In this document: piece after piece, positions 24,834 through 63,863 of the stretch
How positions within the stretch are numbered: position 1 is the first letter of the stretch
Layout: each line of letters starts with the position of its first letter
Assembly: GCA_963783375.1 (NCBI GenBank)
Contig: CAWANH010000029.1
Span: 1,248,001 to 1,312,000, forward strand
Source of the DNA: Candidatus Eiseniibacteriota bacterium
GTDB taxonomy: Bacteria > Eisenbacteria > RBG-16-71-46 > JABDJR01
Direction: 5' to 3'
DNA: 64,000 bases
Notes under the pieces: model-generated
What the model was told of the DNA's origin: nothing
The model's input: the letters and a program-made list of their open reading frames with translations, nothing else
Databases searched by the model: none
Translations under genes and position numbers: made by a program

Positions 24834-24955
24834 GGGAGCGGGCGCGGCGGGCGGAGACCGGGATGGCATGGACGGTCGGGACGTTGTTGGGAGCGGCCCG
24901 GCCCCGGAAGCGCACGGCCGGAGCTTTCTTGCGGAGAGAGCGCGCACGGGGCTTC

Positions 24956-25113
24956 ATTGCGAACATTGCTTCCCCGGGGGCGCACGGCGCGGGATTTATC
25001 GCGAACCATGCTTCCCCGGGGACGCACGGCGAGGACTTTATTGCGAACCTTGCTTCCCCGGGGGCGCACGGCGAGGGCTTTATTGCGAACCTTGCTTCCC
25101 CGGGGGAGCACGG
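24956..25113. repeat. 42-bp tandem repeat, left block, 4 copies with a palindromic core
   Basis: Units start at 24956, 24998, 25040, 25082; consensus ATYGCGAACCTTGCTTCCCCGGGGRCGCACGG plus ~10 less conserved nt. Confidence 0.95.
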
Positions 25114-25156
25114 TTGGCGCGATCCCGGCGCGGCCGCATGGGCCGGCCCTGCCCTT

Positions 25157-25321
25157 GAGCGAGGCGCGAATCGGATACCGCGGCGGGCGGCTCCGGTGAG
25201 CCACGGGCGAGCCGGAGACGGGGCCCCGTCGCGGGGGCCGAGCGAGCGAGGAAACGTCCGGTGGACGTTTCGAGCGAGCGCTGAGCGCCGAGACGAAGGG
25301 GCACCGGCCCAAAGGCCGGGC
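25157..25321 (+). other. Structured interspersed element, copy 1 (putative ncRNA or REP/MITE-like)
   Basis: 25220-25280 matches the reverse complement of 42051-42111 at 49/61 without gaps; stems 25178-25187/25225-25234 and 25251-25259/25263-25271. Confidence 0.7.
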
Positions 25322-25423
25322 TGGGGACGAGCCGGGCCGGGGAGGCGCTGAACCCGGCCGCGCCCGACTCGACCGAACCGAGTCGGCAACGGCCCGAAGG
25401 CCGGGCTGGGCGGCCGGCGCTCT

Positions 25424-25539
25424 ATCGCGAACCTTGCTTCCCCGGGGGAGCACGGCGAGGGCTTTATTGCGAACCTTGCTTCCCCGGGGACGCACCGCTG
25501 GCGCCTAATCGCGAACCTTGCTTCCCCGGGGACGCACGG
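25424..25539. repeat. 42-bp tandem repeat, right block, 3 copies
   Basis: Units start at 25424, 25466, 25508 with the same core as the left block. Confidence 0.95.
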
Positions 25540-25541
25540 GT

Positions 25542-26522
25542 TCAGCCGCGGTCGTTGCCGGGGGCGCCCCGGCCGGGCCCAACCAGCCACTCCTCGTCCG
25601 GGACCACCGATCCGATCACCGCGTCGAGGTTCTGGAGACCCCGCTCGGCCAGATATCCTCGGAGACCGGATGCGATCAGCGCGGGACAATTCGGGTCGGC
25701 GTACACCGCGGTCCCCACCTGAACCGCCTTGCACCCGGCGATCAGGAACTCCAGGGCGTCCTCGGTTTCGGCGATCCCCCCGATCCCGATCACGTCGCAG
25801 CGGAGCGCCTGGATCAGCTCCCAGCACTTGGCCAGGGCCACCGGGCGGATGGCCGGGCCGCTCAAGCCGCCCACCCCGCGGCGAAGCGCGGTGCGACGGG
25901 TCCGCACGTCGATTCTCATGCCCAGGAGCGTGTTGATGGCGGAGAGGCCGTCGGCGCCCGCGTCGAGGCAGGCCCGGCCCACCTCGCTGATGCGGGTGAC
26001 GTTGGGCGTGAGCTTGGTCCACACCGGCTTCCGGGTGGCCTTCCGCACCGCGGCCACCACCTCGGCGGCCAGCCGGGGATGGGTGCTCATATCGAGACCG
26101 CCTTCGCGGACGTTGGGGCAGGAGATGTTGAGCTCGAGGGCATCGCACCGCTCCACCGAGTCCAGCCGCTCGGCCAGCCGGGCGAAATCATCGGGTCCGT
26201 AGCCCCCGATCGAGACCACGACCCGGGTCTCGATGCCGTCGAGGCGGGGGAGCTTCTCGGTCAGGAACCGGTCGATCCCCACCCCTTCGAGCCCGATCGA
26301 GTTGAGCATCCCCGCCGGCGTCTCGGAGATCCGCGGCGGCGGGTTCCCCGGCCGCGCCTCGGCGAAGATCGTCTTGGTGACCACCCCGCCGATGGCTTCC
26401 AGGTCGAGGAGACCCAGGAGTTCGGCGCCGTACCCCCCGGTTCCCGAGGCCACCAGGATCGGGTTGCGGAGCGGGAGCCCGCCCGCGGTGATCGAGAGAT
26501 CCGGCACGATGGGCTCAGTCAT
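25542..26522 (-). CDS. pyrD: Dihydroorotate dehydrogenase, family 1B catalytic subunit
   Basis: NPILVASGT, GNPPPRI.ET..GMLNSIGL, ELNISCPNV, KLTPNV, GGLSGPAIRP. Confidence 0.95.
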   Translation of the reverse strand: MTEPIVPDLSITAGGLPLRNPILVASGTGGYGAELLGLLDLEAIGGVVTKTIFAEARPGNPPPRISETPAGMLNSIGLEGVGIDRFLTEKLPRLDGIETRVVVSIGGYGPDDFARLAERLDSVERCDALELNISCPNVREGGLDMSTHPRLAAEVVAAVRKATRKPVWTKLTPNVTRISEVGRACLDAGADGLSAINTLLGMRIDVRTRRTALRRGVGGLSGPAIRPVALAKCWELIQALRCDVIGIGGIAETEDALEFLIAGCKAVQVGTAVYADPNCPALIASGLRGYLAERGLQNLDAVIGSVVPDEEWLVGPGRGAPGNDRG

Positions 26523-27366
26523 GGCGGACCCGTTCCCAGTCGATCCGCGCCGCGTCCACCACCGGACCCTCGACACACTGCATGAGGTAGCGCGCCTCGT
26601 CCTTGAGCGGCACCGCGCACCCGCGGCAGAGCCCGAGCCCGCAGCCGTAGACCCCTTCGAAGCTCACCTGGCAGGCCAGGTCGTGGCGCCGGGCCAAGGC
26701 CGCGGCCTCGGCCAGGAGCACCTCGGGCCCGCAGACGTAGAGCGCCCCGCCGTCGGCCAGCCATTCGGGTCGGCCGGTCTCCAGGGCCTCGATCACCGTC
26801 CCCCGAAACCCCGCGCTACCGTCGTCGGTGGCCACCCGGAGACGATCCGGATCCAGGCGGTCCAACCCGAAGAGGAGCGCCTGGGTGCGAGCGCCAAACG
26901 CAAATCTTATATCGGGTTGCCCGCGTTCTCTTAGGATTCGGTAGAGGTAAAGGAGCGGTGCCGCGCCGCGTCCGCCGGCCACCAGGATCGCCGGGCGGGA
27001 GGGGTCCGGGGCGTAGGCCGTCCCCAGGGGGCCCAGGCAGTCGACCCGGTCGCCTTCGCGCCACCGGGCCATGGCCGCGGTCCCGCCTCCCACGACCGCG
27101 TAGTAGAGCTCGATCACCACCGCCCCGGGCTCCCGCCGGAACTCCACCACTCCGAAAGGACGCCGGAACAGGCGCTCCAGTTTGCCCCCACAGCGGAGGC
27201 TCAGGTACTGGCCGGGGAGGACGTCCGGGTAGTCGGCGGGAAGCTCGAGGGTGAGCCAAAAGAATCCGGGGTGCGTCTCACGTTGGGAGCGTACCCGCGC
27301 CGGATCCAACCGTGGCGTTGCCGGGTTCGGCGCCGGGGCGTTTCGGGTCTCGGTGGTCGGGGTCAA
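26515..27366 (-). CDS. pyrK: Dihydroorotate dehydrogenase electron-transfer subunit
   Basis: PGQY, RRPFG, GPLG, VAGGRGAAP, TDDGSAG, CGPE, CGLGLCRGC...C [2Fe-2S] motif; coupled to pyrD. Confidence 0.92.
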   Translation of the reverse strand: MTPTTETRNAPAPNPATPRLDPARVRSQRETHPGFFWLTLELPADYPDVLPGQYLSLRCGGKLERLFRRPFGVVEFRREPGAVVIELYYAVVGGGTAAMARWREGDRVDCLGPLGTAYAPDPSRPAILVAGGRGAAPLLYLYRILRERGQPDIRFAFGARTQALLFGLDRLDPDRLRVATDDGSAGFRGTVIEALETGRPEWLADGGALYVCGPEVLLAEAAALARRHDLACQVSFEGVYGCGLGLCRGCAVPLKDEARYLMQCVEGPVVDAARIDWERVRHD

Positions 27367-27482
27367 GGTCCGCCCTCTGGGTCCGGTGGTGCGCTTTTCT
27401 GCCTTCGGGACCGGCGGGTTGCCGGGAGAGTCCTTCTTCCCGAAGGCTCCGGGGCCTTGCCCTTGCCTGGTTCGACCCCCGC

Positions 27483-30400
27483 CTACTTTCCCCCCGCCTT
27501 CTTCCCGTCGTCCCCGGCATTCGTATCGGGGGGCGGGGCCTTCCCGGCATCGCCGGCGGTGGTGTCGGCGGGGGCGGTCCCATTCTCACCCACCGCTTTC
27601 AGGCTGTCAGCCGCATTCTCCCTCCCACCCGTCTTCGAACTGTCGGGGGCCGTCTCCGCCGGCTCGATCTTCAGGCTGTCCGCGCCTCCGCCCGCCGGGG
27701 TGATCGCGCCGCCCTCCTGCGTCCCGCCCTTCAAGGAGTCCGCCGGGGCGCTGGCGCCGTCCCCCTGCGTCCCGCCCTTCAAGGAGTCCGCGGGGGTGCC
27801 CGCCCCGTCCCCCGACTCCGCGCTCCTCAACGAATCCCCGGAGCCGGGAGCCGGGAACCACCCGTCCGCCGCCGGGACCGCCATCGGGTCCAGCGGCGCT
27901 CCGCTCGGGCCTACGGGAAGCGGCTTCCGGCCCACGTCCTCGGGCGGCGGCTGCGGCGTGGGGGGGACGGTGTCCCTCGGGGCGGGCGCCACCGGCGGTG
28001 TCGTCCCGGCCGGAAGCGGCGACGCCGTCTTCGACGGCAAGCCCTCCGGGGGTCCCGCGGCAGTTCCACCGGCGGGGGCACCGCCCGGCGCCGCACCACC
28101 CGGCTCAGCGTCAACCTTCCCCCCCGTCGCATTCGCGGAACCACGGCCGGGATCGTCTCCGGCCTCCAGTGGTGACCCACCCGGCGGCCCCGGCCCAACC
28201 GATGGCGGCTTCCCCGTCGGCGGCGGCGTTCCCCCCGGTGCAAGCACCGGCGGTTCGGTCCGGGTGTCGTCCCGGCTCAGGATGGCGACCGCGCGGTTTC
28301 CCCCGGGGCCGCCCGGGGGAGGGAGTTGGGCACGGCTGGAATCGGCCGGAGCCTCACGACGCATGCGTTCGAGAAGCTGGCGCTGGCGCTCACCGACCGA
28401 GGTTCCGGCGCTGGTGTCGGCGGCGGAAGCGCCGGGGGCCGACAACGAATCCGCGGGAGGCGGGGCCTCCGCCGCGGCCAGTAGGCTGTCCCGCACGGTC
28501 ACCGATGCAATGTTCTCCGGAGTTGCGAGTTCGGCCAGGCTGGGGCCGTTGAACTCCTCCGGCGAGGGTTCGCGCTCGGGCCCCTTCAGGATGCGCGCGG
28601 CCCTCCGGCCGTACTCGGTGTCGGGAAACCGGCGCATCACGTCCGCGTACTTGGCCCGTCCCCGGGCGGTGTCGGCGAGGGCGTGCATGCGCACCCACGC
28701 TTCGGCGAGAGCGGCTTTGGCCTCGTGATCGGTGCCCGGGAAGTCCTTCTGGATCGCCAAATACTCGCTGAGCGCCTTGTCCGGCTTGTCCTGTTGGAAG
28801 AGGTAGAGCTCCGCCCTCATGAAATGGGCCTGCGCCGCGGCGGCGGTGGCGGTGCTGGCCGAGTCCGAGGACGCCTCGGCGAGCAGGCTCTTCACCGTGG
28901 CCAGGCTCTTCGCCCGACGCGCCGCGTCTTCGGCAAACGATGAGCGTCCCTGGCTGCCGACCGCCTGGTATGCCTTCTGAGCCTCATCGAAGTCTTCCAG
29001 ATCCACCTCGTAGGTGTAGCCGATCCGGTACTGCGCCTCCGCGGCGTAGGTCGTTCCGCGGTATTCGTCGATCACCTGCTCGAAGGCCTGGATGGCGTCC
29101 CACGGCCTTCCCAGCGCGGCCAGCACTTGCCCCTCCTTGATCAGCACCCGGCCGAGCTGTTCGTATCTCGGATCGGTCTTGAGGAGGGTCTGCCGCTGCT
29201 GCTTGTTCTGCTGGCCGGCCACGGCGGAACCCACGGTCATCCCGGTCTGGGAATTGACCGTGCCGGTGGCGGTGTTCGGGGGTGTGTAGTTGGGATCGTA
29301 GACCCCGGTGGCCGGGTTGATCCCGCCGCTCTGGGTGTTCGGGTTGTAGTTGGGATCGTACTGTCCCGTCGCCGGGTTGATCCCCCCGGTCTGGGTGTTC
29401 GGGTTGTAGTTGGGATCGTACTGCCCCGTCGCCGGGTTGACCCCCCCGGTCTCGGTGTTCGGGTTGTAGTTGGGATCGTACTGCCCCGTCGCCGGGTTGA
29501 CCCCCCCGGTCTGGGTGTTCGGGTTGTAGTTGGGATCGTACTGCCCGGTGGCCGGGTTGATCCCACCGGGCTGGGTGTTCGGGTTGTAGTTGGGATCGTA
29601 CTGCCCGGTGGCCGGGTTGATCCCCCCGGGCTTGGCGTTCGGATTGAGCTGCGCATTCAGTAGCGAGTCCTGACGCGCCTGTTCCAGGGCCTTCAGCTTC
29701 TCGTTCCGGATGGCCTCCCGCTCCTCCGCGCTGATCCGCCCGTTGAATACGTTGGGGTCGAGCCACACCTCGACGTCCTGGTACAGCTTCAACGCCTGCT
29801 CGTGCTCATCCTGGCTCTCTAGCACCTCACCCAGATCGAGCTTGGCCTCCAGGCGCGCTTCCTCCATCGGCGCCTTGGTGGCCACATGGGTGAACAGCTC
29901 GCTCGCCCGATCGTAGGACTTGTCATCGAGGAGGAGCCGCCCCAAGGCCAGCCGCGCCTGCACCGCCAAGTCGCCCTTGGGGTAGCGGGACAGGAAATCC
30001 TGATAGGCGGCCTTCGCCCGGTCGGGGAGCTCTTCCTCCCGAAGGGCCTCGGCCACATAGAACTCCACGCTCTCCCGATCATCGTACTTGGGATAGCGCT
30101 GGATCAGGTCGGCCCAGATCGCCTGAGCCCCCGGGTAGTCTTCCTGGGCGAAGGCGGTGAGGCCCCGCCAGTAGGCGGCCTCGGCGAGCTTGTTGCTCTT
30201 GGGAAACCGCTCCGCGAAATGATCCAGCTCGCTCCGGGCGCTGATGTAGTCGCCCTTCCCGTAGTACGCCTTGGCCATGAGAAGCCGGGCGTCGTCCTGC
30301 CACTTGCTTCCCGGATAGTCCTCGATCACCTTCTTGCACTTATCGATGCACTTCGAATAGAGGTCGGAGGACCGCCCGACCGACGCGTTCTTCCGCGTGG

Positions 30401-30719
30401 AATACCGGGGATCGGCGGGGTTGATCCCACCGAGGCCGTTCGCGCTACCCCCACCCTGGCCCCCGCCGGTTATCCCCTGGGCCTGCTTGATCTCGGTCTC
30501 GTGGGCACTCTCGGCGCTCTCGTAGAACTGCTTGGCGTGATAGAAGGTGTTGAAGTAGGCGCACCCGCCGGTGAGGGCGAAGACGGCGAGCAGGACGACC
30601 CCGAACCCGCCCCGGGTTCCGCGACCCCATCCGAGGCCTCCGCGCCTCACGCCGCCGGCCCTCCGGGCGCCGCGCGGCGACGCGGCGGGGGATGCGGTTT
30701 TCGGGAAGCGGTTCAACAC
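27483..30719 (-). CDS. Large TPR lipoprotein with internal 20-aa tandem repeats and a Pro/Gly-rich tail
   Basis: Lipobox LTGG-C followed by AYFNTFYHAK; multiple TPR_6/BamD-like repeats (YPGSKWQDDARLLMAKAYY, FPKSNKLAEAAYW, AEAQYRIG). Confidence 0.85.
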   Translation of the reverse strand: MLNRFPKTASPAASPRGARRAGGVRRGGLGWGRGTRGGFGVVLLAVFALTGGCAYFNTFYHAKQFYESAESAHETEIKQAQGITGGGQGGGSANGLGGINPADPRYSTRKNASVGRSSDLYSKCIDKCKKVIEDYPGSKWQDDARLLMAKAYYGKGDYISARSELDHFAERFPKSNKLAEAAYWRGLTAFAQEDYPGAQAIWADLIQRYPKYDDRESVEFYVAEALREEELPDRAKAAYQDFLSRYPKGDLAVQARLALGRLLLDDKSYDRASELFTHVATKAPMEEARLEAKLDLGEVLESQDEHEQALKLYQDVEVWLDPNVFNGRISAEEREAIRNEKLKALEQARQDSLLNAQLNPNAKPGGINPATGQYDPNYNPNTQPGGINPATGQYDPNYNPNTQTGGVNPATGQYDPNYNPNTETGGVNPATGQYDPNYNPNTQTGGINPATGQYDPNYNPNTQSGGINPATGVYDPNYTPPNTATGTVNSQTGMTVGSAVAGQQNKQQRQTLLKTDPRYEQLGRVLIKEGQVLAALGRPWDAIQAFEQVIDEYRGTTYAAEAQYRIGYTYEVDLEDFDEAQKAYQAVGSQGRSSFAEDAARRAKSLATVKSLLAEASSDSASTATAAAAQAHFMRAELYLFQQDKPDKALSEYLAIQKDFPGTDHEAKAALAEAWVRMHALADTARGRAKYADVMRRFPDTEYGRRAARILKGPEREPSPEEFNGPSLAELATPENIASVTVRDSLLAAAEAPPPADSLSAPGASAADTSAGTSVGERQRQLLERMRREAPADSSRAQLPPPGGPGGNRAVAILSRDDTRTEPPVLAPGGTPPPTGKPPSVGPGPPGGSPLEAGDDPGRGSANATGGKVDAEPGGAAPGGAPAGGTAAGPPEGLPSKTASPLPAGTTPPVAPAPRDTVPPTPQPPPEDVGRKPLPVGPSGAPLDPMAVPAADGWFPAPGSGDSLRSAESGDGAGTPADSLKGGTQGDGASAPADSLKGGTQEGGAITPAGGGADSLKIEPAETAPDSSKTGGRENAADSLKAVGENGTAPADTTAGDAGKAPPPDTNAGDDGKKAGGK
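29281..29640 (-). repeat. 60-bp coding tandem repeat, 6 copies (GG[IV]NPATGQYDPNYNPNT[QE]x)
   Basis: Consecutive 60-nt lines are nearly identical (gggttgtagttgggatcgtactg...). Confidence 0.97.
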
Positions 30720-31067
30720 CAGGGGGGCCTCTCGGGTTGGGGACCTAGGACTCTACGATACCCGTCCGGGATCGCTCAAGGGAACGGCCGTAACTCCTTC
30801 GATCGGAACCGATTCCAATGCTCCATCCCGCGGAGGAGGGACCGATCCGCCGGCGCGCACTCCACCATGTCCTACTACCCCTTGCGGTGAAAGGAGTTCC
30901 TGCAGGGGGGGCGGGCCGGGAGCCTCTCACCCGGGCCCCGGCGCCGGGGCCGCGGAAGCCGATGCGGGACGCCGGGAGCCAACTTGGCCCGGCCCGGGAG
31001 ACCGGGTATCGTGCAGCGCGTGCACCCGAAACAACGCCTCTCCATCGATCCCGAACCCCGAACACCC

Positions 31068-32123
31068 ATGACCCACGCCCCACGCGAGCCCGCCTGTCAT
31101 CGCCGGACCGTCGCCCTCCCGGCCGCGGCGGCCCTGCCGCTCGTCCTCCTGGGCCTCCTCTTCGCCGGTCCCGCGCGCGCCGAGGACTCCGGAACCCGCG
31201 TGATCCAGGTCTTCCACGACAACGTCATCCACTTCACCCCCGTCGATCCGGGTCGATATGACGTTCCCGGGATCCGGAGCGCGGACAACGGGCGGGTGCT
31301 CATCCGGAGCCTCGATGTCCGTCCCCCCGAGGGCCCGTACCGGATCCTGGCCCGGGTGGAAACCCGCCCCATCCCCATCGACTCGATCGGGGTCACCGAC
31401 CGCTGGGACCGGGCCGGAGACGTTCGCCTGGCCGTGCCCGGCGCCCCCGAGGTGGAGATCGTGAAGTTCGTGACCGCCTACGGCGGGCCCACCGTCCACG
31501 AGGTGGACGTCACCGACCTCGCCCCGCTCCTTCGCGGCCGGTGCGCGTTCAAGGGGTTCATCGACACCTGGGCGTCGCCGGGGTGGCGGATGGACTTCAC
31601 GCTGCGCTTCGTTCCCGACCCCGGGGCGCGGACGCCGGCCTGGGTGGAGCCGGTCCTCTACGAGGAGTCGGTCACCGCCGGGAGCATGGCCGGGGGGCCG
31701 ATCTCCGTGCCGGTGGAGGTGCCCCCGGGCCTCGGCCGGGTCACCCTCCGCTACCTGGTCTCCGGCCACTGCACCGACGGCATCGACGCCGACGAGTTCG
31801 TGAGCAAGACCAACGCGATCTCGGTGGACGGCGCCGATGTCTACCGCTTCAACCCCTGGCGGGACGACTGCCGCCGCTTCCGCGGCGTGAACCCTTACAC
31901 CCGCCACTGGCCCGACGGCACCTGGTCCAGCGACTACTCGCGAAGCGGCTGGTGCCCGGGGGACGTGGTGTCTCCGGTGACCGTGGTCCTCGGCCGGCCC
32001 CTCACCGCCGGAGAGCACGTGATCGGTTTCCGGGTGGAGGACGTCCGCCCGGCGAACGATCATCACGACTTCGGCTACTGGCGAGTGTCGGCGGTGATGG
32101 AGGGATGGCCGACTGGGCCCTGA
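31068..32123 (+). CDS. Secreted peptide-N-glycosidase F-like protein
   Basis: Signal peptide; DRWDRAG, EIVKFVTAYG, VDVTDLAPLL, SGH..DEF, PWRDDC, SRSGWCPG motifs of the PNGase F family. Confidence 0.8.
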   Translation: MTHAPREPACHRRTVALPAAAALPLVLLGLLFAGPARAEDSGTRVIQVFHDNVIHFTPVDPGRYDVPGIRSADNGRVLIRSLDVRPPEGPYRILARVETRPIPIDSIGVTDRWDRAGDVRLAVPGAPEVEIVKFVTAYGGPTVHEVDVTDLAPLLRGRCAFKGFIDTWASPGWRMDFTLRFVPDPGARTPAWVEPVLYEESVTAGSMAGGPISVPVEVPPGLGRVTLRYLVSGHCTDGIDADEFVSKTNAISVDGADVYRFNPWRDDCRRFRGVNPYTRHWPDGTWSSDYSRSGWCPGDVVSPVTVVLGRPLTAGEHVIGFRVEDVRPANDHHDFGYWRVSAVMEGWPTGP

Positions 32124-32189
32124 CCCGGCGGTGTGCTAGAGTTCCAGCACCCCCGGTCGGAAAGGATCCGCTCCGTGACCGTTTCCCGT

Positions 32190-33155
32190 ATGACCCTCGC
32201 GCTCCTCGCGATTGCCCTCGTGTGCGCCCTCGCTGGCCCGGCCTCCGCCCAGCAGGTCGCCGACACCAGCTTCGTGAGCCGGCTCGACCATCCCACCTTC
32301 GCCAAGGGCCAGGGCCCGCGGGTGGTGATCGACGGCGCCCACCACAACTATCACACCGCCGACGGACGCTACTGGCCCTTCGCTGAGCTACTGCGCACCG
32401 ACGGCTACCGGGTGCGCGGCTCCGGCGTCCGGTTCACGCCGGAGGCCCTGAAGGACGCCGACCTCCTGGTGATCGCCAACGCCCTGGCCGCGGAGAACGA
32501 GAGCGGATACGACTGGGTGCTTCCCGTGGCCTCCGCACTCGACTCCGCCGAGGTCGCGGCGGTGGCGGACTGGGTGCGGGGCGGGGGTGCGCTGCTCCTG
32601 ATCGCCGACCACATGCCCTTCCCCGGCGCGGTGAGCCACCTCGCCGAGGCCTTCGACGTCCACCTCATGGACGGCTTCCTATTCGCCGGGCCGGATCTCT
32701 CGGAAGGGACCTTCGATTTCGCGAAGCCGGGGGCGACGGCGCCGGCAGGCGCGTTCGTGGCCGGAACCCTGGCCGATCACCCGATCACCCGAGGCTCCCC
32801 CGCCGGCGAGGCGATTCCTTTCGTGCGGACCTTCACCGGCGAAGGGTTCCGCGTCCCGCCGGACGCGACGAGCCTTCTCACCCTCGGCGAGCCCTCGGCG
32901 GTTCTCTTCCCCGCCGTGGCCTGGCAGTTTTCCAAGCTCACCCCCAACGTCTCGGCCGAAGGGCTCTCCCAGGGGGCGGTGCTGCAGTTCGGCCAGGGCC
33001 GGGTGGCGGTGTTCGGGGAGGCGGCCATGTTCACCGCCCAGCTCGCCGGACCGAACCGCGTGCCGGTCGGGATGAACGATCCGGCCGCGCCCCACAACAA
33101 GCAGTTCCTGTTGAACCTGGTGCACTGGCTGACCGGGACGGCCGCGAAGCGCTGA
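32190..33155 (+). CDS. Secreted DUF4350-like / GATase-fold protein
   Basis: Signal peptide ending ASA-QQ; IDGAHHNYHT, LLVIAN, WVRGGGALLLIADHMPF, GRVAVFGEAAMF. Confidence 0.65.
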   Translation: MTLALLAIALVCALAGPASAQQVADTSFVSRLDHPTFAKGQGPRVVIDGAHHNYHTADGRYWPFAELLRTDGYRVRGSGVRFTPEALKDADLLVIANALAAENESGYDWVLPVASALDSAEVAAVADWVRGGGALLLIADHMPFPGAVSHLAEAFDVHLMDGFLFAGPDLSEGTFDFAKPGATAPAGAFVAGTLADHPITRGSPAGEAIPFVRTFTGEGFRVPPDATSLLTLGEPSAVLFPAVAWQFSKLTPNVSAEGLSQGAVLQFGQGRVAVFGEAAMFTAQLAGPNRVPVGMNDPAAPHNKQFLLNLVHWLTGTAAKR

Positions 33156-33219
33156 GCGGACTCCCGCGCCGGGGCCTCGCGTATCGCCGCCAATCCATCC
33201 CGCCGCGGGACCGCCCGGG

Positions 33220-36200
33220 TCACCGCGCCGAGCGCACCACCACCAACCGGTCGGCGAAGGTCTCCCCCGCGGTCTGGAGTCGGTAGAAGTACACCCCGGT
33301 CGCCGCGGCACGACCGGCGTCGTCCCGGCCGTCCCAGCGGGCGGTGTTGAGGCCCTTGTCCCCTCGGCCGTCGAACACCGTGGTCACGTGCCGGCCGGCG
33401 AGATCGTAGATCTCCACCCGCGCCGGGCCCGCCGCGGCCAGGCTGAAGGTGATGGCGCCCGCCACGCCGCCCCGGAACGGGTTGGGCGCGAAGCCGAGGA
33501 GCGCGGTCACCGGCTTCCCGCCGGGCTGCCCGGGCACCGCGGTGACCGGAAAGCTCGTGGGACAGGGGTCGGCCGGAGTCGATCCGAAATAGGAGAGCAC
33601 CTCGCTCAAGCGCTGCCGGACCGCATCGGTGCCGGCGCAATCGGCGGCGGAGCGGCGCCGGGCCACCGACACCCCGTCCACCACCGTGCGACGGAGCTTG
33701 GTCCCGGAGTCGACCAGGAAGTCGTTGGCGATCGAGGCGTACTCCGCCGAGCCCTTGTCCGGTCCCTCGTAGGTCTCGTCGGGAAGCGGCGATCCGTAGA
33801 CGACGGCGCTCGACGGCCCCATCACGTTGAACTTGTGGAAATCCGGACACCCGTTCCCGGCCGCGACCTGACCGGGCCCCCGTCCCAGGGGTGCCGCGAC
33901 CGGAGGGGTCGCGATCGCGGCCAAACCCATGCACGGCGTGTTGTCGGCCGCGGTGCCCATCGGACAGTTGTAGGAGTGAACCGCGCTGCACACCCAATCG
34001 ACGCCGCAGACCTCGCTCAGAAGGCTCGCCGGAAACGGGTTCCCCGAGGAGGCCGCGGCATAGGCCGTGGACACCAGCCGGTCCCCGCTGAGATAGAGCC
34101 CGGATACCTTGGGAAGCCCGGCCACGGGAAGCGTGAGCCAGGACCGCAACACGACCGCGTCCCCCGCGGTGAGGGCGAAGTAGGTGGTTCCGTTGCCGGT
34201 GTCGAAGAGAATGAACCGGTACTTGGCGAGCTGGTCCAGCGTAGCCCCGTACTTGCTCCCCTGGGGTCTCCCCAGCGAGGCCGAGGCAGGGATGTCCATG
34301 CGGTCCCAGGCCGTTCCCTCGTAGTTCGTCGAGCCGGCGGGGTAATAGCCGGCGAGCCCCCCCTCGATGGTCGACCGGGCGGCGGGGTCCTTGGTGGCGT
34401 TCACATAGAGAACACAGTTGAAGGTGGTGTCGGCGGCCATCGAGGACGGGAGGACCTCCATCTCCAGGGTGTTCCCCCCGGCGGTGTCCGGCACCGTGGA
34501 CCAGGCGTCGTATCCGGGGTAGCTGGGCGAGCTCGGGAGGTAGCGCGCCTTGTAGAAGAGCATCAGCCGCGATCCGGGGGTGAGGAGGTCATCCGGAAAG
34601 ACCTCGTTGGCCAGACGGCTGTTGTGGCCCAGGAGATCGAGGTCCGAGGCGTCGTGATCGGTATCGGAGCCGGTGAAGTTCGGATCCTCCTCGTGGTACG
34701 CGGTCATCCAGATCATGGACGCGTTCGAGGAGGCGGTTCCGTGGGCGCCGTTCTGCTCCGCGGTGTCGATCCGGGCCGAGTACCAGTCCAGCCCGCGCCA
34801 CGCGCCCTCATACCGCTGGTCCCCCAGCCAGGCGCCCAGGGCCGAACCGTCGATGCCGGGACCGGGCGCCACCGCGAACTGGACCCGGACCTCCGCCCCC
34901 CCCAGCGCCCCGCGGACGAGCAGGGTGTCCCCCAGGCTCGAGTTGGCCTCCTCGAAGGTGGTGCGGGTGGCGCGGTCCACCCGCCCCGGCGACGAGAACC
35001 CCAGGGTCCCGTCGGTGGGGAACGCGTCCTGAGGGCCTTCTCCGGCGCTCAAGCTCAGGAGCGGGGCGGAGGGTTCCCCGTATACCCCGAACCGGACGTT
35101 GTCGATGTAAGGGCTGGGGTTCCCCTGGCCGGTGCAGATCCCGGTGAACGAGGCGCAAAAGCTGAACACGCCGATCGCGATCCGGACCTGGGTCGCTTCG
35201 GGTGGGATGAGATCGGTGAGATCCAGGCGGAACGGGTAGTTTCCGCTTCCGTAGCAATCCGGGCCGGATGTGATGTAGAAGTCCCCGGTGCTGACGAACG
35301 GGCTGGCCGGGGACGTTCCGCCTCCGGAGCAGGTGAACGGGGACCATTGCACCTGGACGTCGATGCCGACGCCGTCCTCGAAGAGGAGATCCTGATACCC
35401 TTCGAACTCGATCAGGCGCCCCGGCTTCCCGGCCGCCCCGGCCCGGACGAGATCGATCCAGGGCGAGATCGCCAGGTTGTGCTGGTAGAGGTTGTGTTCG
35501 GGATCCAGTTTGTCCCGGAAGACCAGGACCGAGTCGGCAAGGACGCAGGGGCAGCTCGACTCCGCCGGCGGCAGATCGGCGGAGGCGGCGATGTCGGACC
35601 AGTCCCCTCCCGGGCCCGGCGTGGCCGGGAGCAACCCCCATCCCCCGTCGTCGGACTCGAAGTCCTGGTAGTCGCTCACCCCGCCCCCGAGAATCGAGAC
35701 GTCGTCCACCGCGAACGCGCCGCAGGAGGTGGCGTTCAGGCCGTCCTCATCCGAGTAGCTGGCGTCGGATTCCATGCAGAACCGGAGCGTGAAGGGACCG
35801 GGGCTGCTCCGGAGAGTCGTCCCGGGAACGAGGACCAGCGAGGCGCTTCCGGAGGTGGCGCCGGTATAGCTCGCGAGTTCCAGGTCGGCCGCGGAGCCGT
35901 TCCCGGTGGTGTCCACCCGGACGTACGAGAAATCGTACCCGTCCTCGGTGTCGTTCACGAAATCGTAATCGAAGGTCACGGGGGCGGCCGAGGTCAGGGT
36001 GAACGTCTTTCCCCGGCAGATCCGCCAGCCGTTCCCGTAGCCGGGGCCGGCGGCGGCGTAGCAGAGATCGTTCGCCTCCTCGGCGAGCACGCCGCACCAG
36101 AGCGACGCGTCGCCCCCCAGACCCACCGCGCTGCCCACGCACGGCGATCCCATGAAGTCCGAGACGGTGAGCCGCCGGAAGTAGGTCGCCTCGCTGTAGG

Positions 36201-36588
36201 TCAGATCGGTGCCGACCCAACCTTCCATGGTCGCGTGGAGTTCCTGCCCCGACGGGGCCGGATTCTGGGGGCTTCCGTACTTGAACGGGTTCACCCCGGG
36301 AATCGAGTAGTCGTAGCCCGAGCCGACGCCGGAATCGAAGGTCCAGACGCCCCCGGGGATGGCTTCCCAGCGGACCGAATCCGCCGCCCACACCGTCCCT
36401 CCAAACCATGCGGTGTCCTGGGAGGCGGCGCCGAGGACGCCGGCCGGCGGGGAGGAGTGGATCGTCCGCTCCCCGGCCGCCGCCTCCATCGTGCGGACGT
36501 GCGTGGGGTCGATGACCGGGGGGCGCGCGGCGGCGACGGCGGGGAGGAAGAGACCGATGAGGACGACGGCCGCGTGTCGGTTTGTCAT
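33220..36588 (-). CDS. Large Cys-rich secreted protein with C-terminal FlgD-Ig/T9SS-type sorting domain
   Basis: Signal peptide; DTEDGYDFSYV / ESDASYSDEDG / FAVDDV (immune-inhibitor-A/MAM-like beta domain); C-terminal APNPF...EIYDLAGRHV...WDGRDDAG..A.GVYFYRL. Confidence 0.8.
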   Translation of the reverse strand: MTNRHAAVVLIGLFLPAVAAARPPVIDPTHVRTMEAAAGERTIHSSPPAGVLGAASQDTAWFGGTVWAADSVRWEAIPGGVWTFDSGVGSGYDYSIPGVNPFKYGSPQNPAPSGQELHATMEGWVGTDLTYSEATYFRRLTVSDFMGSPCVGSAVGLGGDASLWCGVLAEEANDLCYAAAGPGYGNGWRICRGKTFTLTSAAPVTFDYDFVNDTEDGYDFSYVRVDTTGNGSAADLELASYTGATSGSASLVLVPGTTLRSSPGPFTLRFCMESDASYSDEDGLNATSCGAFAVDDVSILGGGVSDYQDFESDDGGWGLLPATPGPGGDWSDIAASADLPPAESSCPCVLADSVLVFRDKLDPEHNLYQHNLAISPWIDLVRAGAAGKPGRLIEFEGYQDLLFEDGVGIDVQVQWSPFTCSGGGTSPASPFVSTGDFYITSGPDCYGSGNYPFRLDLTDLIPPEATQVRIAIGVFSFCASFTGICTGQGNPSPYIDNVRFGVYGEPSAPLLSLSAGEGPQDAFPTDGTLGFSSPGRVDRATRTTFEEANSSLGDTLLVRGALGGAEVRVQFAVAPGPGIDGSALGAWLGDQRYEGAWRGLDWYSARIDTAEQNGAHGTASSNASMIWMTAYHEEDPNFTGSDTDHDASDLDLLGHNSRLANEVFPDDLLTPGSRLMLFYKARYLPSSPSYPGYDAWSTVPDTAGGNTLEMEVLPSSMAADTTFNCVLYVNATKDPAARSTIEGGLAGYYPAGSTNYEGTAWDRMDIPASASLGRPQGSKYGATLDQLAKYRFILFDTGNGTTYFALTAGDAVVLRSWLTLPVAGLPKVSGLYLSGDRLVSTAYAAASSGNPFPASLLSEVCGVDWVCSAVHSYNCPMGTAADNTPCMGLAAIATPPVAAPLGRGPGQVAAGNGCPDFHKFNVMGPSSAVVYGSPLPDETYEGPDKGSAEYASIANDFLVDSGTKLRRTVVDGVSVARRRSAADCAGTDAVRQRLSEVLSYFGSTPADPCPTSFPVTAVPGQPGGKPVTALLGFAPNPFRGGVAGAITFSLAAAGPARVEIYDLAGRHVTTVFDGRGDKGLNTARWDGRDDAGRAAATGVYFYRLQTAGETFADRLVVVRSAR

Positions 36589-36955
36589 GTCGAGCCTCCG
36601 GGGTAAGGGAGGGTTGAAAGACGCCAGGGGCCAGGGTCGAAGGGCTCGGGGCCCGAGCGCAGTCCTCTGCCCGGGCCCTTCGGGGGGCGGGGCGGGCCAA
36701 GACCACGACGCCCAAGCCGAGCGCGAGGAGCATGAGGACCGGAACCAGTTGCAGCCTATCCGGATGCATAGCAGGCTCCCAGGGAGAGTTGCTGAAGCAG
36801 GCGGCGGGAGCCCCGTACAGGGGAAGCGCCTACCGGTCTACCAACAAATATATCTGAATTTCATTCGAGTGCAAACACTTGCGACCGGGCAAGTAGAGGA
36901 TGGACGATCTCGGACCCCTGCGGGAGAGATGCCTCGTACGCCCGGCGCGCGTTGG

Positions 36956-39900
36956 TCAGGGGGTCAAGCGGTGGGGGCGCCTTCCGGGGGGAGCGACGCG
37001 CTCGGGCGGGGAGCCGCCGGCCGCATATCCTGGAGCGCCCGCACCTCGAAGGCCCCGAGCGCGGGCGGCCTCGATCCCGCACACCGCCGCCGCCGCCCCG
37101 GGGAGGGTGGTGATGCAGGGAACCCCCTGGGCCATCGCCGCCAGCCGGATGAGCTTCTCGTCCGCCTTGGCCCGGCGCCCCTGGGGGGTGTTGAGGACCA
37201 AGCGCACGGTGCCGCCCTCGATCAGGTCCACCACGTCGGGCTTCCCCTCCCCCGCCTTGTGGACGCTTTCGACCGGCACCCCGTTCATGGCCAGGAACCG
37301 CGCCGTGCCCTCGGTGGCCACCAGGTCGAACCCCATGGTCACGAGCTGCTTGGAGAGGAACACCACCTCGCGCTTGTCGTCGTCGCGCACGCTCAGGAAC
37401 ACGGTGCCGCTCTCGGGGAGCGGCTCCCCCGCTCCCGCCTGCGCCTTGGCGTAGGCTTCCCCGAAGTGCGCGCCGGTCCCCATCACCTCGCCGGTGGATT
37501 TCATCTCGGGACCGAGCAGCGTGTCCTGCCCGGGGAACCGGTCGAAGGGAAGGACCGGCTTCTTCACGCTGATCAGGAACCGGGGCGAGCCGGGATCTCC
37601 GACCGAAGCGTCGCTCGCTTCGGGGAGCGGATCGCCGAAGATCGCGTCCACCGCAAGGTCCACCAGGGGGATCCCCGCCGCCTTGCTCACGAAGGGAACG
37701 GTGCGCGAGGCGCGGGGATTCGCCTCCAGCACGTACACCGTGTCGCCCTTGACCGCGTACTGCACGTTGATCAGCCCCCGGACCCCGAGGGCCCGGGCCA
37801 GGCGGGCGGTGATCTCCTTCAGCTCGTTTTCGCTCTCGCGGCCGATGGAGTACGGCGGGGTGAGGCACGACGAGTCGCCGGAGTGGACCCCGGCCTCCTC
37901 GACGTGCTCCAGCACCGCCCCCACGACCACATTCCGGCCGTCGGAGACCGCGTCCACGTCCAGCTCGACCGCGTCCTCCAGGAACGCGTCCAGGAGCACC
38001 GGCTCCTCCTCGGAGATGCGGATCCCCGCGGCGATCAGCGACTCCAGCTCGTTCCGCCCGTACACCGTCCGCATTCCCCGCCCGCCGAGGACGAAGGACG
38101 GCCGCACCAGGACCGGGTAGCCGATCCGCTCCGCCTCGCGGACGAGGTCCTTCCCCGCGGTGACGATCCGGCTCCGGGGCTGGCTGAGGCCGAGCTTCCG
38201 GACCAGGGAGCGCCAGAAGTCGCGGTTCTCGGCGTCGTCGATGGCCTTCCGCGGGGTGCCGAGGATCGGCCAGCGCGCCTCCTCCACCGCGCGGGCGAGC
38301 TTCAAGGGCGTCTGCCCCCCGAACTGGAGCACCACGCCCCCCGGCCGCTCCTTCTCCAGCACGTTCAGCACGTGCTCGCGGGTGAGCGGCTCGAAGTAGA
38401 GCCGGTCGGAGGTGTCGTAGTCGGTGGAGACGGTCTCGGGGTTCGAGTTCACGAACACCACCGGGCGGCCCTTCCGCCGGATCGCCTTGGCCGCGCGCAC
38501 GCAGCAGTAGTCGAACTCCACCCCCTGCCCGATCCGGTTGGGACCGCTCCCCAGCACCACCACCGCGTCCGCGCCGAGGGGCGCGCCCTCGTCCTCGCGC
38601 TCGTAGGTGGAATAGAAGTACGGGGTCTCGGCGGGAAACTCCGCCGCGCAGGTGTCGACCGCCTTGTAGACCGGCGTCACCCCCAGCCGTTTCCGGAGCG
38701 AGCGGACGTCGTCCTCGGGGAGCCGGAGGAGATGGGCCAGGTGGGCGTCCCCCAGGCCGTGGCGCTTGGCCTCGGTGAGGAGCGCGGCGGCGGCGCTCTC
38801 GTCGTTCTGCGCCAGGAGCGCCGGCAGCTCTACCCGCACCCGCTTCTCGCACCCGACCACCGTGTTCATCCGATCGAGGAACCAGCGATCGATTCCGGTC
38901 GCCCGGGCGAGTTCCTCCGGCGTCCGCCCCCGCCGGAGCGCTTCCAGGAGCTGAAACGGCCGCTTCCAGGTGGGGCGGGCCAGGGTCGCGTCGGCCGCGG
39001 GGTCGGGCGAGCGCGGGACGGCGGCGCCGGTGATGAGCCCCTCCAGATCGTCGATCTCGAGGCTCATGAGCGCCTTCATGTACGCCTCGGGGAAGGTCCG
39101 CCCGATGGCCATGACCTCCCCCACCGACTTCATGCGGGTCCCCAGGGTGTCGTCGGCCTGGGGGAACTTCTCGAAGGCCCAGCGCGGGATCTTCACCACC
39201 ACGTAGTCCAGGGTGGGCTCGAAGCAGGCGGGGGTGACCCGGGTGATGTCGTTCTGGATCTCGTCCAGGGTGTAGCCCACCGCGAGCCGGGCGGCGATCT
39301 TGGCGATGGGAAAGCCGGTGGCCTTGCTGGCCAGGGCGCTGGAGCGCGAGACCCGGGGATTCATCTCGATCACCACGATCCGCCCGTCGCGCGGGTTCAT
39401 GGCGAACTGCACGTTCGAGCCCCCGGTGTCCACCCCCACCGCGCGGAGCACCTCCAGCGCCATGTCCCGGAGCCGCTGGTACTCGCGATCGGTGAGGGTC
39501 TGGATGGGGGCCACGGTCACCGAGTCCCCGGTGTGGACCCCCATGGGATCCACGTTCTCGATCCCGCACACGATGACCGCGTTGTCGTTCCGGTCCCGCA
39601 TGACCTCCAGCTCGAACTCCTTCCAGCCGGTCAGGTCCTCCTCGATCAGCACGGTGTGGACCGGGCTCAGGCGGAGCGCGTCTCTCACGATCCGGGTGAG
39701 CGCTTCGGGGTCTTCCGCGCGGCCGCCCCCCGCCCCGCCCAGGGTGAAGCTCGGGCGGAGGATCACCGGGTAGCCGATCGCCTCGGCCTGTTCCGCGGCC
39801 TCCTCCAGGCTGTGGGCGAAGTGGGAGTTCGGGAGCGGGATGTTCGCGCGCTTCATCGTGTCCCGGAAGAGATCGCGGTCCTCGGCCTTCCGGATCGCCT

Positions 39901-40294
39901 CCAGGCTGGCCCCGATCAGCTCCACCCCCAGCCGTTCGAGAACCCCTTGTTCCGCGAGCTGGACCGCCACGTTCAGCGCGGTCTGCCCGCCCAGGGTCGG
40001 AAGCAGCGCGTCCACCCGCTCCTTCTCCAGGATCTTCGCCACCACGTCGGGGGTGATCGGCTCCAGGTAGGTCCGGTCGGCCACCTCGGGGTCGGTCATG
40101 ATGGTGGCCGGGTTCGAGTTCACCAGCACCACCCGGTAGCCCTCGTCCTTCAGCACCCGGCAGGCCTGGGTCCCGGAGTAGTCGAACTCGCAGGCCTGCC
40201 CGATCACGATGGGGCCGGAGCCGAGGATGAGGAGGGTGGTCGGGCCCGGCTTCCCGTCGCGACGGTGTACCCGGGTACTCGCTTGACTCGTCAC
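36956..40294 (-). CDS. carB: Carbamoyl-phosphate synthase large subunit
   Basis: [70 protein letters not shown] domain. Confidence 0.97.
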
Positions 40295-40334
40295 TGGATC
40301 GCGTCCTCGGGGGTGGTTCGGGGTGAGGCCGGCA

Positions 40335-41636
40335 TCAACCGACAGGCCGGTTCGAGGTTCGAGGATCCGGGTTGCCCTTCGCCCGGAAGAGATAGCGGGC
40401 GTCCCGGGGCCCGGCGTTGGCCTCGGGGTGGAACTGCACCGCGTGGACGCGCAGGTCCGGCGCGTGGAAACCCTCCAGCACCTGGTCGTTCAGGCTCAGG
40501 TGGGTGGGCTCGACCTTCGACGGCCCGTCTCCCCCGGAGAGCGCCCGAAGCGAATCCGGATCCACCGCGAACCCGTGGTTCTGGCTGGTGATGAGGATCC
40601 GCCCGGTGGCGAGGTCCTTCACCGGATGGTTGATCCCGTGGTGGCCGTACTTCATCTTGTAGGTCCTGGCGCCGAGCGCCAGGGCCAGGACCTGGTGGCC
40701 GAGGCAGATCCCGAAGATCGGCACGCGGCCGATCACCTGGCGGACGGAGGCGATCAGGGCGGTGAGGGCGTCGGGGTCGCCGGGGCCGTTGGAGAGGAGG
40801 ATCCCGTCCGGGTCGTCCCGGAGGAGCTCCTCGGGGGTGGCGTTCGGGGCCACGATACGCACCCGCGCGCCCCGACGGCGAAGCGCGGCGTCGATCCCTT
40901 CCTTCATGCCGCAGTGGACCAGGGTGATGCGGGCGCCGTTCGCGACAAACCGGCCCGCTTCGGCGGATTCCGGGTCTCTCACCGGCGACGCGTCCCCGTT
41001 CCGGGGCTCGCGTGGGAACTCGTCGGCAAGCTCCTGCGCGCCCGCCACCGCCTCCGGCGCGCGCCCGAGGAGCCAGGACGGCCAGTCGTCGGAGCCTCGG
41101 AAGGCGGTGTCGGAGAGAGACGGGGCGACCTCCCGCACCAGGTCCCGCCCGGCCAGCCCCGGAAACGCCTTCACCCGGGCGAGGGCCACGTCGGGGGCCA
41201 CCGAGGCCGGCGCGATCACCCCCCGGAGCGCGCCCATCTCGCGGAGATGGCGGGTGAGGGCGCGGGTGTCCACCTCGGTGAGGCACGGCACCTCGTGGCG
41301 GGCGAGGTAGCCGGTCAAGGTCTCCTCGCTTCGCCAGGAACTGGGCCGGTCGGTGAGGGAGCGCACAACAATGCCGGCGAGCGCCGGCCCCGAGGCCTCG
41401 TTGTCGAAGGCGTTCACCCCGGTGTTTCCGATGTGGCTCGCGGTGAAGGTCACGATCTGGCCGCGATAGGACGGGTCGGTGATGACCTCCTGGTAGCCGG
41501 TCATCCCGGTCTGGAAGACCACCTCGCCGATCCCCGGCGCATCGTTCCGGGCGGGGAGCCCCCGCGGAACGCCGCCCACCAAGGTGCCGACGAAGCGGCG
41601 GCCGTCCTCGAGCAGGAGGTAGCCGGACGCGGTCAT
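40335..41636 (-). CDS. carA: Carbamoyl-phosphate synthase small subunit
   Basis: [45 protein letters not shown]. Confidence 0.95.
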
Positions 41637-41871
41637 CGGGGGGCGCCGGCCCGCGCCGGCACGAAGACGATCACCCGGATACACGCCGGTACTGGGATTG
41701 CCGGCTTGCGGACTGGGGGAAGCACCCGCCCGCCGGCTCGTGTCGACCGCCCGATGCGGCCCGCGTGTACCCGGGTAAACAAACCGCTCATGGAACCCGC
41801 CATCCGAAACTGCCCCGAAACGAACCGTGACGCCGTGCGCCTGAAGAGAACCGCAGAACCTGGCGTGCCGG

Positions 41872-42051
41872 CCCCCCCGCGAAGCGCGCGGCCTCCGGCC
41901 GAATGCCCTTCGACTCGTCGGGTCCTCCGACGGCCCCCCCCGCGAAGCGCGCGGCCTCCGGCCGAATGCCCTTCGACTCGTCGGGTCCTCCGACGGCCCG
42001 CCCCGCGAAGCGCGCGGCCTCCGGCCGAATGCCCTTCCACTCGTCGGGTCC
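41872..42051. repeat. 63-bp tandem repeat, ~3 copies, between pyrC and carA
   Basis: gaagcgcgcggcctccggccgaatgcccttc recurs at 41881, 41944 and 42007. Confidence 0.95.
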
Positions 42052-42175
42052 GCTCCCTCGGACCGTCCACCGGACGCTCCTTCGGTCGCTCCTTCACCGC
42101 GAAGGGGCCCCCGCTTCGCGGCCCTTCGCGGTTCAGAACGCCTCCTCGCCCGAAGGGCAATTCGCCCCTCGGCTC
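42010..42175 (-). other. Structured interspersed element, copy 2
   Basis: Homologous to 25157-25321 in inverted orientation; stems 42096-42106/42122-42132 and the hairpin at 42060-42080. Confidence 0.7.
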
Positions 42176-42225
42176 GCGCCTACGCGTAGGACGGATGTCC
42201 GGCGTGGGGACAACTGCGGAAGGCG

Positions 42226-63789: not shown

Positions 63790-63863
63790 TGGCTGGGGAG
63801 CAAGGGCTCGAACCTTGATTCTCGGCTCCAAAGGCCGATGTCCTACCGTTGGACGACTCCCCA
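63790..63863 (-). tRNA. tRNA-Gln(TTG)
   Basis: TGGGGAGTCGTCCAACGGTAGGACATCGGCCTTTGGAGCCGAGAATCAAGGTTCGAGCCCTTGCTCCCCAGCCA: cloverleaf, anticodon loop CTTTGGA, GTTCGA T-loop, CCA end. Confidence 0.96.

Follow-up and report, generated by a model that had tools for sequence, protein, structure and literature searches.

A dispersed family of structured intergenic repeats, predicted to fold on one strand, clusters with HNH nuclease genes in an Eisenbacteria lineage

Repeats that resemble repetitive extragenic palindromes (REPs) are usually ascribed to HUH (RAYT) transposases, and HEARO/omegaRNA, the structured multi-copy element linked to the HNH-containing protein IscB, also exists as stand-alone copies. 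Here we describe an element present twice in a stretch of 64,000 nucleotides from Candidatus Eiseniibacteriota (contig CAWANH010000029.1, positions 1,248,001 to 1,312,000; hereafter the window, on contig C29 of genome G000 in our numbering), copy 1 lying between genes for a GNAT-domain protein and pyrD and copy 2 between pyrC and carA. According to passages in PMC6006769, a REP is a hairpin of 21-65 nt whose 5' foot is the tetranucleotide GTAG/GTGG (or CGTC), and the definitions of REP, bacterial interspersed mosaic element (BIME) and REPIN used below for comparison are those found in parts of PMC6006769 and PMC3733652. The two copies belong to a dispersed family of intergenic repeats that is predicted to fold on one strand and that clusters with genes for an HNH nuclease. 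No description of the element was found in the literature searched (titles and abstract openings).

An original prediction, made from the letters of the window, had matched positions 25220-25280 with the reverse complement of 42051-42111 at 49/61 nt without gaps and had proposed a family of structured, covarying, non-autonomous elements tied to local tandem amplification. The match is borne out and the wider proposal is supported: BLAST of the window copies against the whole genome returns the pair at an E value of about 9e-9 together with further copies, and BLAST combined with iterated nhmmer yields 24 strong and 2 partial matches in G000, where a covariance model of the 3' half finds 26. 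These 26 copies, 130-190 bp long, fall into 18 loci, all of them intergenic (18/18, with gene boundaries and intergenic calls from our own hexamer gene finder) and bordered by unrelated genes. Four subfamilies occur side by side in G000, and the relatives have subfamilies of their own. Of 150 genomes sampled from the phylum and scored with the covariance model at 28 candidates per genome, six gave matches, all of one family (G000-G004 and G006; assemblies 93-100% complete, not closed). G001 holds 30 near-full copies and nine 3' halves among 102 BLAST pieces, and these copies are young, being mostly 85-97% identical; the covariance model gives nine matches in G003, four each in G002 and G004 and three in G006. 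The 144 other genomes gave no match, but diverged relatives may escape the model; as it was trained on this family, and as an earlier model, R1, missed all G001 copies, blanks outside the family are not proof of absence. Exact-pattern scans of metagenome contigs, run with no positive control and thus of little weight, also gave no match.

Stem P1 closes the predicted common fold, from which two arms extend: P2, which is variable and keeps a 3' GGG bulge, and P3, the best-conserved part of the family; many of the unpaired positions are GA opposite GA. The central hairpin with its A-T/G-C swap, the outer stem and the flanking GAGCGA-type motifs are all present as originally described, with one G·G mismatch besides the swap in the central hairpin of copy 2. 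The likeness drawn further upstream, at 'gcgaat', is out of register: in the family alignment the GCGAAT of copy 2 is not the homologue of that of copy 1. Folding against 200 shuffles with RNA parameters gives z scores of -4.6 for copy 1 and -3.0 for copy 2, neither of which is equalled by any shuffle (0/200), and copy 1 folded as DNA gives -3.4, with 1/200 shuffles equally good. That differences between the copies preserve pairing is sustained on wider alignments of 20 and 37 copies. Over 20 copies, with three G003 rows that are misaligned in their 5' half kept in, 84.1% of cells are paired as opposed to 77.4% in shuffles and 37-47% in slid controls, and there are 73 double changes as against 31.9 in shuffles, none of 500 shuffles being as good; for P3 in 37 copies, the paired fraction is 92.5% as compared with 79.3% in shuffles. 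Because related sequences can beat a shuffle test of this kind, specific pair swaps are more telling. In the subfamily of copy 2, CC/GG replaces GC/GC at the two pairs enclosed by the GA/GA tandems; G003 has GG/CC in place of GC/GC at the base of P3; and in some copies Watson-Crick pairs stand in for the G·A tandems themselves.

The purine-rich pattern is strand-asymmetric. The outer P3 tandem reads GA/GA in register in 24/37 rows and off by one column in 8 G001 rows, the remaining rows having G-C pairs instead (4) or a mutated tandem (1), and the inner tandem reads GA/GA in 21/37. A sequence-blind scan for a hairpin with two GA/GA tandems finds 10 sites genome-wide, all of which belong to the family, while six control dinucleotides find 0-2. 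As the opposite strand would carry TC/TC mismatches, the fold is strand-specific, and the element strand is indeed the more stable one in 40/48 copies with RNA parameters and in 45/48 with DNA parameters. The structure predicted for the family is a three-way junction, formed by one strand and rich in tandem G·A pairs.

One of the genes flanking the element encodes an HNH nuclease. It has five paralogues in G000, where this is the sole dispersed multi-copy nuclease among the paralogue clusters listed, and the family occurs in 9/41 genomes, all six carriers included. A C-terminal match to PF01844 (HNH) is found in 4/4 of the G000 members scanned and a match to PF02720 (DUF222) in 0/4, the latter appearing in 8/120 among the homologues listed. 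Element arrays lie upstream of 2/5 HNH genes in G000, head-to-head, and a fragment follows a third; the other two genes are near contig ends. A full copy stands downstream of at least 4/11 HNH genes in G001, with modules downstream of at least four more, the element stands downstream of 2/11 in G003, and in G004 a related single hairpin stands downstream of 5/7. The element or the related hairpin clusters with HNH genes in four of the six carrier genomes. The literature searched contains no DUF222-HNH mechanism, no ParB/Noc-like N-domain in this family and no linked structured repeats. As to the genes themselves, HNH paralogues (L056, L060, L065, L081, L083) share upstream an AT-rich, promoter-like stretch that includes a short inverted repeat and a conserved leader, some 60-130 bp ahead of the start codon. 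One paralogue in G000 (L052, at C22:265-1686) is interrupted by an internal stop and is apparently frameshifted; the start of contig C22 duplicates the end of C1.

An AlphaFold model of one HNH paralogue (pLDDT, the predicted local distance difference test, 78) comprises a helical N-domain, a ribbon-helix-helix-like segment, a disordered linker and the HNH domain. The middle segment retrieves ribbon-helix-helix proteins at Z of about 4, and the HNH domain resembles those of McrA and IscB. For the N-domain folded alone (pLDDT 93), the Foldseek rows listed down to rank 29 are all ParB/Noc chains, at E values of 0.04 or worse and template-modelling (TM) scores of 0.54-0.55 by query, and the top four VIA rows are DNA-binding domains of ParB/Spo0J/KorB (Z 7.9-6.1, root-mean-square deviation 2.6-3.6, 91-104 residues). 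The N-domain has no sequence-level match to ParB/Noc, and no match to the CTP-binding domain was found. Long intergenic palindromes in G000 most often centre on CCCGGG (110), and a 16-bp site with this core lies within 700 bp of 14/18 element loci in that genome as opposed to 26% of controls (p 7e-6); the element of G000 thus clusters with these palindromes as well. Such a site is also found at 3/5 HNH genes of G000 and at 25/31 HNH loci in relatives. At several distant HNH homologues (L139-L192) a single perfect palindrome of 14-18 bp recurs on the upstream side, within the gene and on the downstream side; its core varies by lineage (CCCGGG, CACGTG, CGCGCG or TCCGCGGA), and other homologues show none. 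As given in parts of PMC7383237, the core of the Noc site is CCCGGG and that of parS is CACGTG. From the modelled fold, the N-domain may be ParB/Noc-like and is a candidate binder of the CCCGGG palindromes.

The element is present or absent at orthologous gaps. G003 lacks it between the GNAT gene and pyrD, and both G001 and G003 lack it between pyrC and carA; the sites of G002 give no information for both window gaps and two further gaps (contig ends or an N run). A gap beside a hydantoinase gene is short in the close relative G002, with one CCCGGG palindrome and no element; it holds the palindrome and subfamily IV in G000, the palindrome, 5' modules of subfamily VI and an IS110-type gene in G001 (L302), and neither palindrome nor element in G003. 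In another orthologous gap G002 has a full subfamily III copy where G000 has the 5' part of subfamily III and then a subfamily I copy. These comparisons suggest that copies may land in or replace existing repeats, the direction not being readable from these pairs. A second dispersed family with a 42-bp unit (61 units in 20 clusters in G000) is present at 10/18 element loci, giving mosaic clusters, and copy 1 splits one such array (24949-25113 / 25417-25539). The original prediction had placed a tandem array beside each copy, which holds; the two arrays are not of one kind, that of copy 1 being of the 42-bp family and that of copy 2 its own 3' end. At several loci two 42-bp units in opposite orientation make a long perfect palindrome. 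The related single hairpin of G004 is a separate family of about 100 bp at 20 loci (L116-L131, L134, L135), with GCGNAGC motifs at both ends; its tip is the same as that of the P2 arm of copy 2.

The enzymes that had been suggested as partners were not found in the carriers searched, apart from one reverse transcriptase. PF01797 (RAYT/IS200) is matched in 0/6 carrier genomes, its control being positive in 6/14, and NF047646, likewise with a positive control, in 0/1 carrier genome searched; PF00078 (reverse transcriptase) is matched in 0/4 of G000-G003 and once in G004 (1/5 tested). TnpB gave no match above the cut-off and one below it across 7 genomes, and PF14239 gave no match that has weight, its control being silent too. 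IS110 is absent from G000, G002 and G004 and present four times each in G001 and G003; it was rejected as the mobiliser, its ends being unlike those of the element, which pair imperfectly. Among the transposase families searched, which are not all families, none was found to match the element ends. In G001 an IS110-type transposase gene with short inverted ends lies inside CCCGGG-palindrome tracts (L204, L202, L302; one copy is truncated), and apparent remnants of an IS110-type end follow HNH genes on C1 and C22 of G000; this suggests an IS1111-like element that targets CCCGGG palindromes.

In DNA, sheared G·A pairs in tandem are stable, and tandem G·A pairs are also frequent in RNA. The tip of P2 reads C(GNA)G in 35/37 scorable copies, many of those from G001 being near-identical, on several different stems (subfamilies I, IV, VI, VII), with 24 GAA, 8 GCA and 3 GGA. 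According to parts of PMC13037366, GCGNAGC makes a DNA mini-hairpin that is exceptionally stable and resists nucleases; the melting temperature of GCGAAAGC is 76.5 C as DNA vs 39 C as RNA, and hairpins of this type bind single-stranded DNA-binding protein (SSB) poorly. We favour DNA clearly over RNA as the functional form, and the folded form would then be DNA; the element would offer a case from nature in which selection appears to favour non-canonical DNA structure, with tandem G·A pairs and GNA mini-hairpins. The original prediction had left the choice between non-coding RNA, self-processing RNA and a REP/MITE-like single-stranded DNA element (MITE, miniature inverted-repeat transposable element); the last fits best, and the RNA options sit badly with the absence of an Rfam family, the unbiased orientation and the DNA-type triloops. 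It had also noted both copies downstream of a stop codon in the sense direction. This is correct for the pair, copy 1 being between convergent genes and hence sense to one neighbour in either direction, and does not extend to the family, co-directional gaps dividing into 6 sense and 4 antisense. An orientation independent of the neighbouring genes argues against a cis-acting RNA. We consider it improbable that the element works as RNA, be it a stable non-coding transcript, a terminator or 3'-end stabiliser, or a scaffold of the HNH protein on the model of HEARO/omegaRNA and IscB. The strand-specific fold and the greater stability of the element strand under RNA parameters would agree with an RNA, as would the excess of G-U wobbles over A-C (52 vs 28), the tandem G·A pairs, the sense position downstream of HNH genes in G001, G003 and G004, the IscB-like HNH domain, and the enrichment of convergent gaps in G000 (6/18 element loci vs 66/803, p 0.002; divergent gaps are depleted, 2/18 vs 282/803, p 0.02). 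However, no known Rfam family was found at the gathering threshold, the single match in the 64-kb window being a tRNA gene (63793-63863, minus strand). Moreover, the orientation is 6:4, the tips are triloops and not GNRA tetraloops, no U-tract follows either window copy, and the likeness to IscB is confined to the HNH domain, with no RuvC-like match in the model. A cis-regulatory or pyrimidine-operon role was rejected, the neighbours being unrelated genes and the orientation unbiased, and the partner was rejected as an IscB (NF040563, 48.5 bits vs a cut-off of 175, over the HNH stretch only).

The reading we put forward, tentatively and at a little short of even chances, is that the element is a structured non-coding single-stranded DNA repeat that spreads as a passenger of a DUF222-like HNH nuclease, which cuts at CCCGGG palindromes and so provokes copy-repair. 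The nuclease would bind the palindrome through its ParB/Noc-like N-domain and its HNH domain would nick or cut nearby; the break would be repaired by ectopic copying from another palindrome-bearing locus, with the element moving along as a passenger. Template slippage at the folded strand could build the local partial arrays, and the fold may persist because the displaced strand would be shielded from nucleases and SSB. An enzyme-free origin, by gene conversion and replication slippage among repeat-rich gaps with the proximity to HNH genes due to hitch-hiking on gene duplication, would account for the co-duplication of HNH-linked copies with long flanks in common, for the varied points at which partial 5' and 3' arrays end, and for the gathering of several unrelated repeats and an IS110-type element in the same gaps. 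We judge it unlikely, as it leaves unexplained both the pairing and GNA tips retained across subfamilies with different stems and the presence of different subfamilies downstream of HNH genes in three genomes. It is quite unlikely, in our estimate, that this is a REP/REPIN/BIME family moved by a RAYT or IS200-type HUH transposase since lost or missing from the assemblies: PF01797 and NF047646 are unmatched in the carriers searched (0/6 and 0/1) although the G001 copies are young, the alignment shows neither a conserved GTAG/CGTC foot nor an inverted REP dimer, and 130-190 bp exceeds the 21-65 nt of REPs. The REP-like placement, the mosaic clusters with other short palindromes, the lineage-specific subfamilies and the GTAG-containing motif that often starts the G004 hairpin would nonetheless suit such a history, as would the atypical high-copy structures with which parts of PMC6006769 describe class 3 TnpA-Y1 genes.

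Several observations weigh against spread as a nuclease passenger and against the DNA fold on which it draws. The linkage is uneven: no HNH gene has the element in G006 (0/5) or in the fragmented G002 (0/2), 16/18 element loci of G000 are not beside an HNH gene, and G013, G015, G020 and the distant homologues have the nuclease without the element. The arrays lie upstream and head-to-head in G000, yet downstream in sense in the relatives. Two HNH-linked loci of G001 are 98.9% identical over 4.6 kb and probably represent a single locus that was assembled twice, and the pair of G003 HNH genes with the element are near-identical duplicates; the nominal p values for the element-HNH linkage (0.02 to 1e-7) are overstated because linked copies were co-duplicated. 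In the relatives the palindrome link falls short of significance, with a palindrome near 18/36 element loci vs 10/31 control windows (p 0.11), and it is seen at 3/15 loci of the G004 hairpin; the fold matches of the N-domain are sub-significant, both by Foldseek E value and with Z below 8 for a helical domain. Flanks inspected by eye and one empty site showed neither a clean insertion junction nor a target duplication, and there is no replication-strand bias (11/18 loci, p 0.48). As to the fold, kinship of the copies alone can outdo the shuffle control without any structure, the P2 tip of copy 1 is ACG and breaks the GNA rule, the central loop is GGT-like rather than GNA, and 11 copies of subfamilies II and V are outside the tip count because the automatic call chose other hairpins.

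A broader proposal, which we hold to be rather doubtful, is that the DUF222-HNH family consists of site-specific nucleases derived from ParB/Noc, which spread parS/NBS-like palindromes of their own over a chromosome and drive a class of RAYT-independent REP-like elements, the three-way-junction DNA described here being the folded passenger or recognition end. If true, repetitive extragenic palindromes would have a second enzymatic origin, unrelated to the first. The young, expanding repeat family in genomes with no detected RAYT points to the widespread and unexplained DUF222-HNH family, whose function becomes testable given a candidate binding site (the 16-bp CCCGGG palindrome) and a candidate ParB/Noc-like fold. 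The layout of the two loci is given in Table 1.

Table 1. Positions of the two element copies, their predicted arms, the adjoining repeats and the flanking genes in the window.
Feature	Position	Strand
Element copy 1, of subfamily II, with a long second arm; three-way junction predicted	about 25130..25319	+
Copy 1 closing stem P1; 5' strand from 25150, 3' strand to 25303, tandem G·A steps	25150..25303	+
Copy 1 arm P2 (outer stem of the original prediction); inserted sub-hairpin, conserved 3' GGG bulge	25178..25234	+
Copy 1 arm P3; central 9-bp hairpin and two tandem G·A pairs	25242..25279	+
42-bp array of the second dispersed family, 3.9 units	24949..25113	+
16-bp CCCGGG-centred palindromes, one per 42-bp unit	24968, 25010, 25052, 25094	
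42-bp array, continued, 2.9 units; palindromes at 25436, 25478, 25520	25417..25539	+
Copy 2 of the element; subfamily IV	about 42010..42179	-
Copy 2 arm P2; GCGAAGC mini-hairpin tip at about 42113-42119	42097..42131	-
Copy 2 arm P3; two pairs between the G·A tandems changed from GC/GC to CC/GG	42052..42089	-
63-bp array, 2.9 units; the element's own 3' end with flank, from the P3-P1 junction	41872..42051	-
16-bp CCCGGG-centred palindrome in the pyrC-carA gap	41765..41780	.
Flanking gene, GNAT-domain protein	23814..24833	+
Flanking gene pyrD, convergent with the GNAT gene; start approximate	25542..26522	-
Flanking gene pyrC, co-directional with carA	42226..43590	-
Flanking gene carA; start approximate	40335..41636	-

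Elsewhere in the window, the tandem repeats at 29271-29646 (60 bp x 6.2) and 27692-27813 (48 bp x 2.5) are coding, within a 1078-aa open reading frame with TPR domains on the minus strand. A DUF1232 gene at 22706-23677 has a long, repetitive Lys/Ala-rich N-terminus (15- and 18-bp repeats, 23430-23612) and adjoins pyrD in G001 too. The gap downstream of carB (36626-36942) is wholly different in G000 as compared with G002, which is 96-97% identical. Many of the small contigs of G000 (C4-C27) repeat portions of C1, C28 and C29, with 80-100% identity at the protein level, and are probably strain haplotypes or assembly duplicates.

Set beside the described systems, the element and its partner have features of several. 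With HEARO/omegaRNA-IscB (OMEGA) the family has in common a structured, multi-copy, non-coding element linked to an HNH-containing protein, but it has DNA-type loops, no orientation bias and no IS200/605 context. Like a MITE it is short and non-coding, with complementary ends, and is present or absent at orthologous sites; unlike a MITE, its ends form an imperfect, mismatch-rich stem rather than the terminal inverted repeats of a transposase, and no target duplication was seen. The partner resembles the DUF222 (13E12 repeat family) HNH proteins, defined by PF02720 and PF01844, in being a multi-copy protein with a helical domain and an HNH domain, although the four G000 members scanned have no PF02720 match. 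Its predicted N-domain fold recalls ParB-parS and Noc-NBS (NBS, Noc-binding site), as do the palindromes, whose core is CCCGGG, as in the NBS, or in some distant homologues CACGTG, as in parS; it differs from these systems in having no match to a CTP-binding domain and in its fusion to a predicted ribbon-helix-helix-like segment and HNH. From REP, BIME and REPIN the element is set apart as a 130-190-bp three-way junction with several tandem G·A steps, not an inverted dimer, with no conserved GTAG/CGTC foot at either end, and by the association with an HNH nuclease instead of a Y1 transposase, none of which was found in the six carriers; by foot, size and transposase it is thus not a member of a well-described REP family. 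Yet these systems are also intergenic, multi-copy, strand-specific hairpins that form mosaic clusters, tandem arrays and lineage-specific subfamilies, are enriched in convergent gaps and flank a nuclease gene with their copies, and it is as a REP/BIME-like family that the element fits best.

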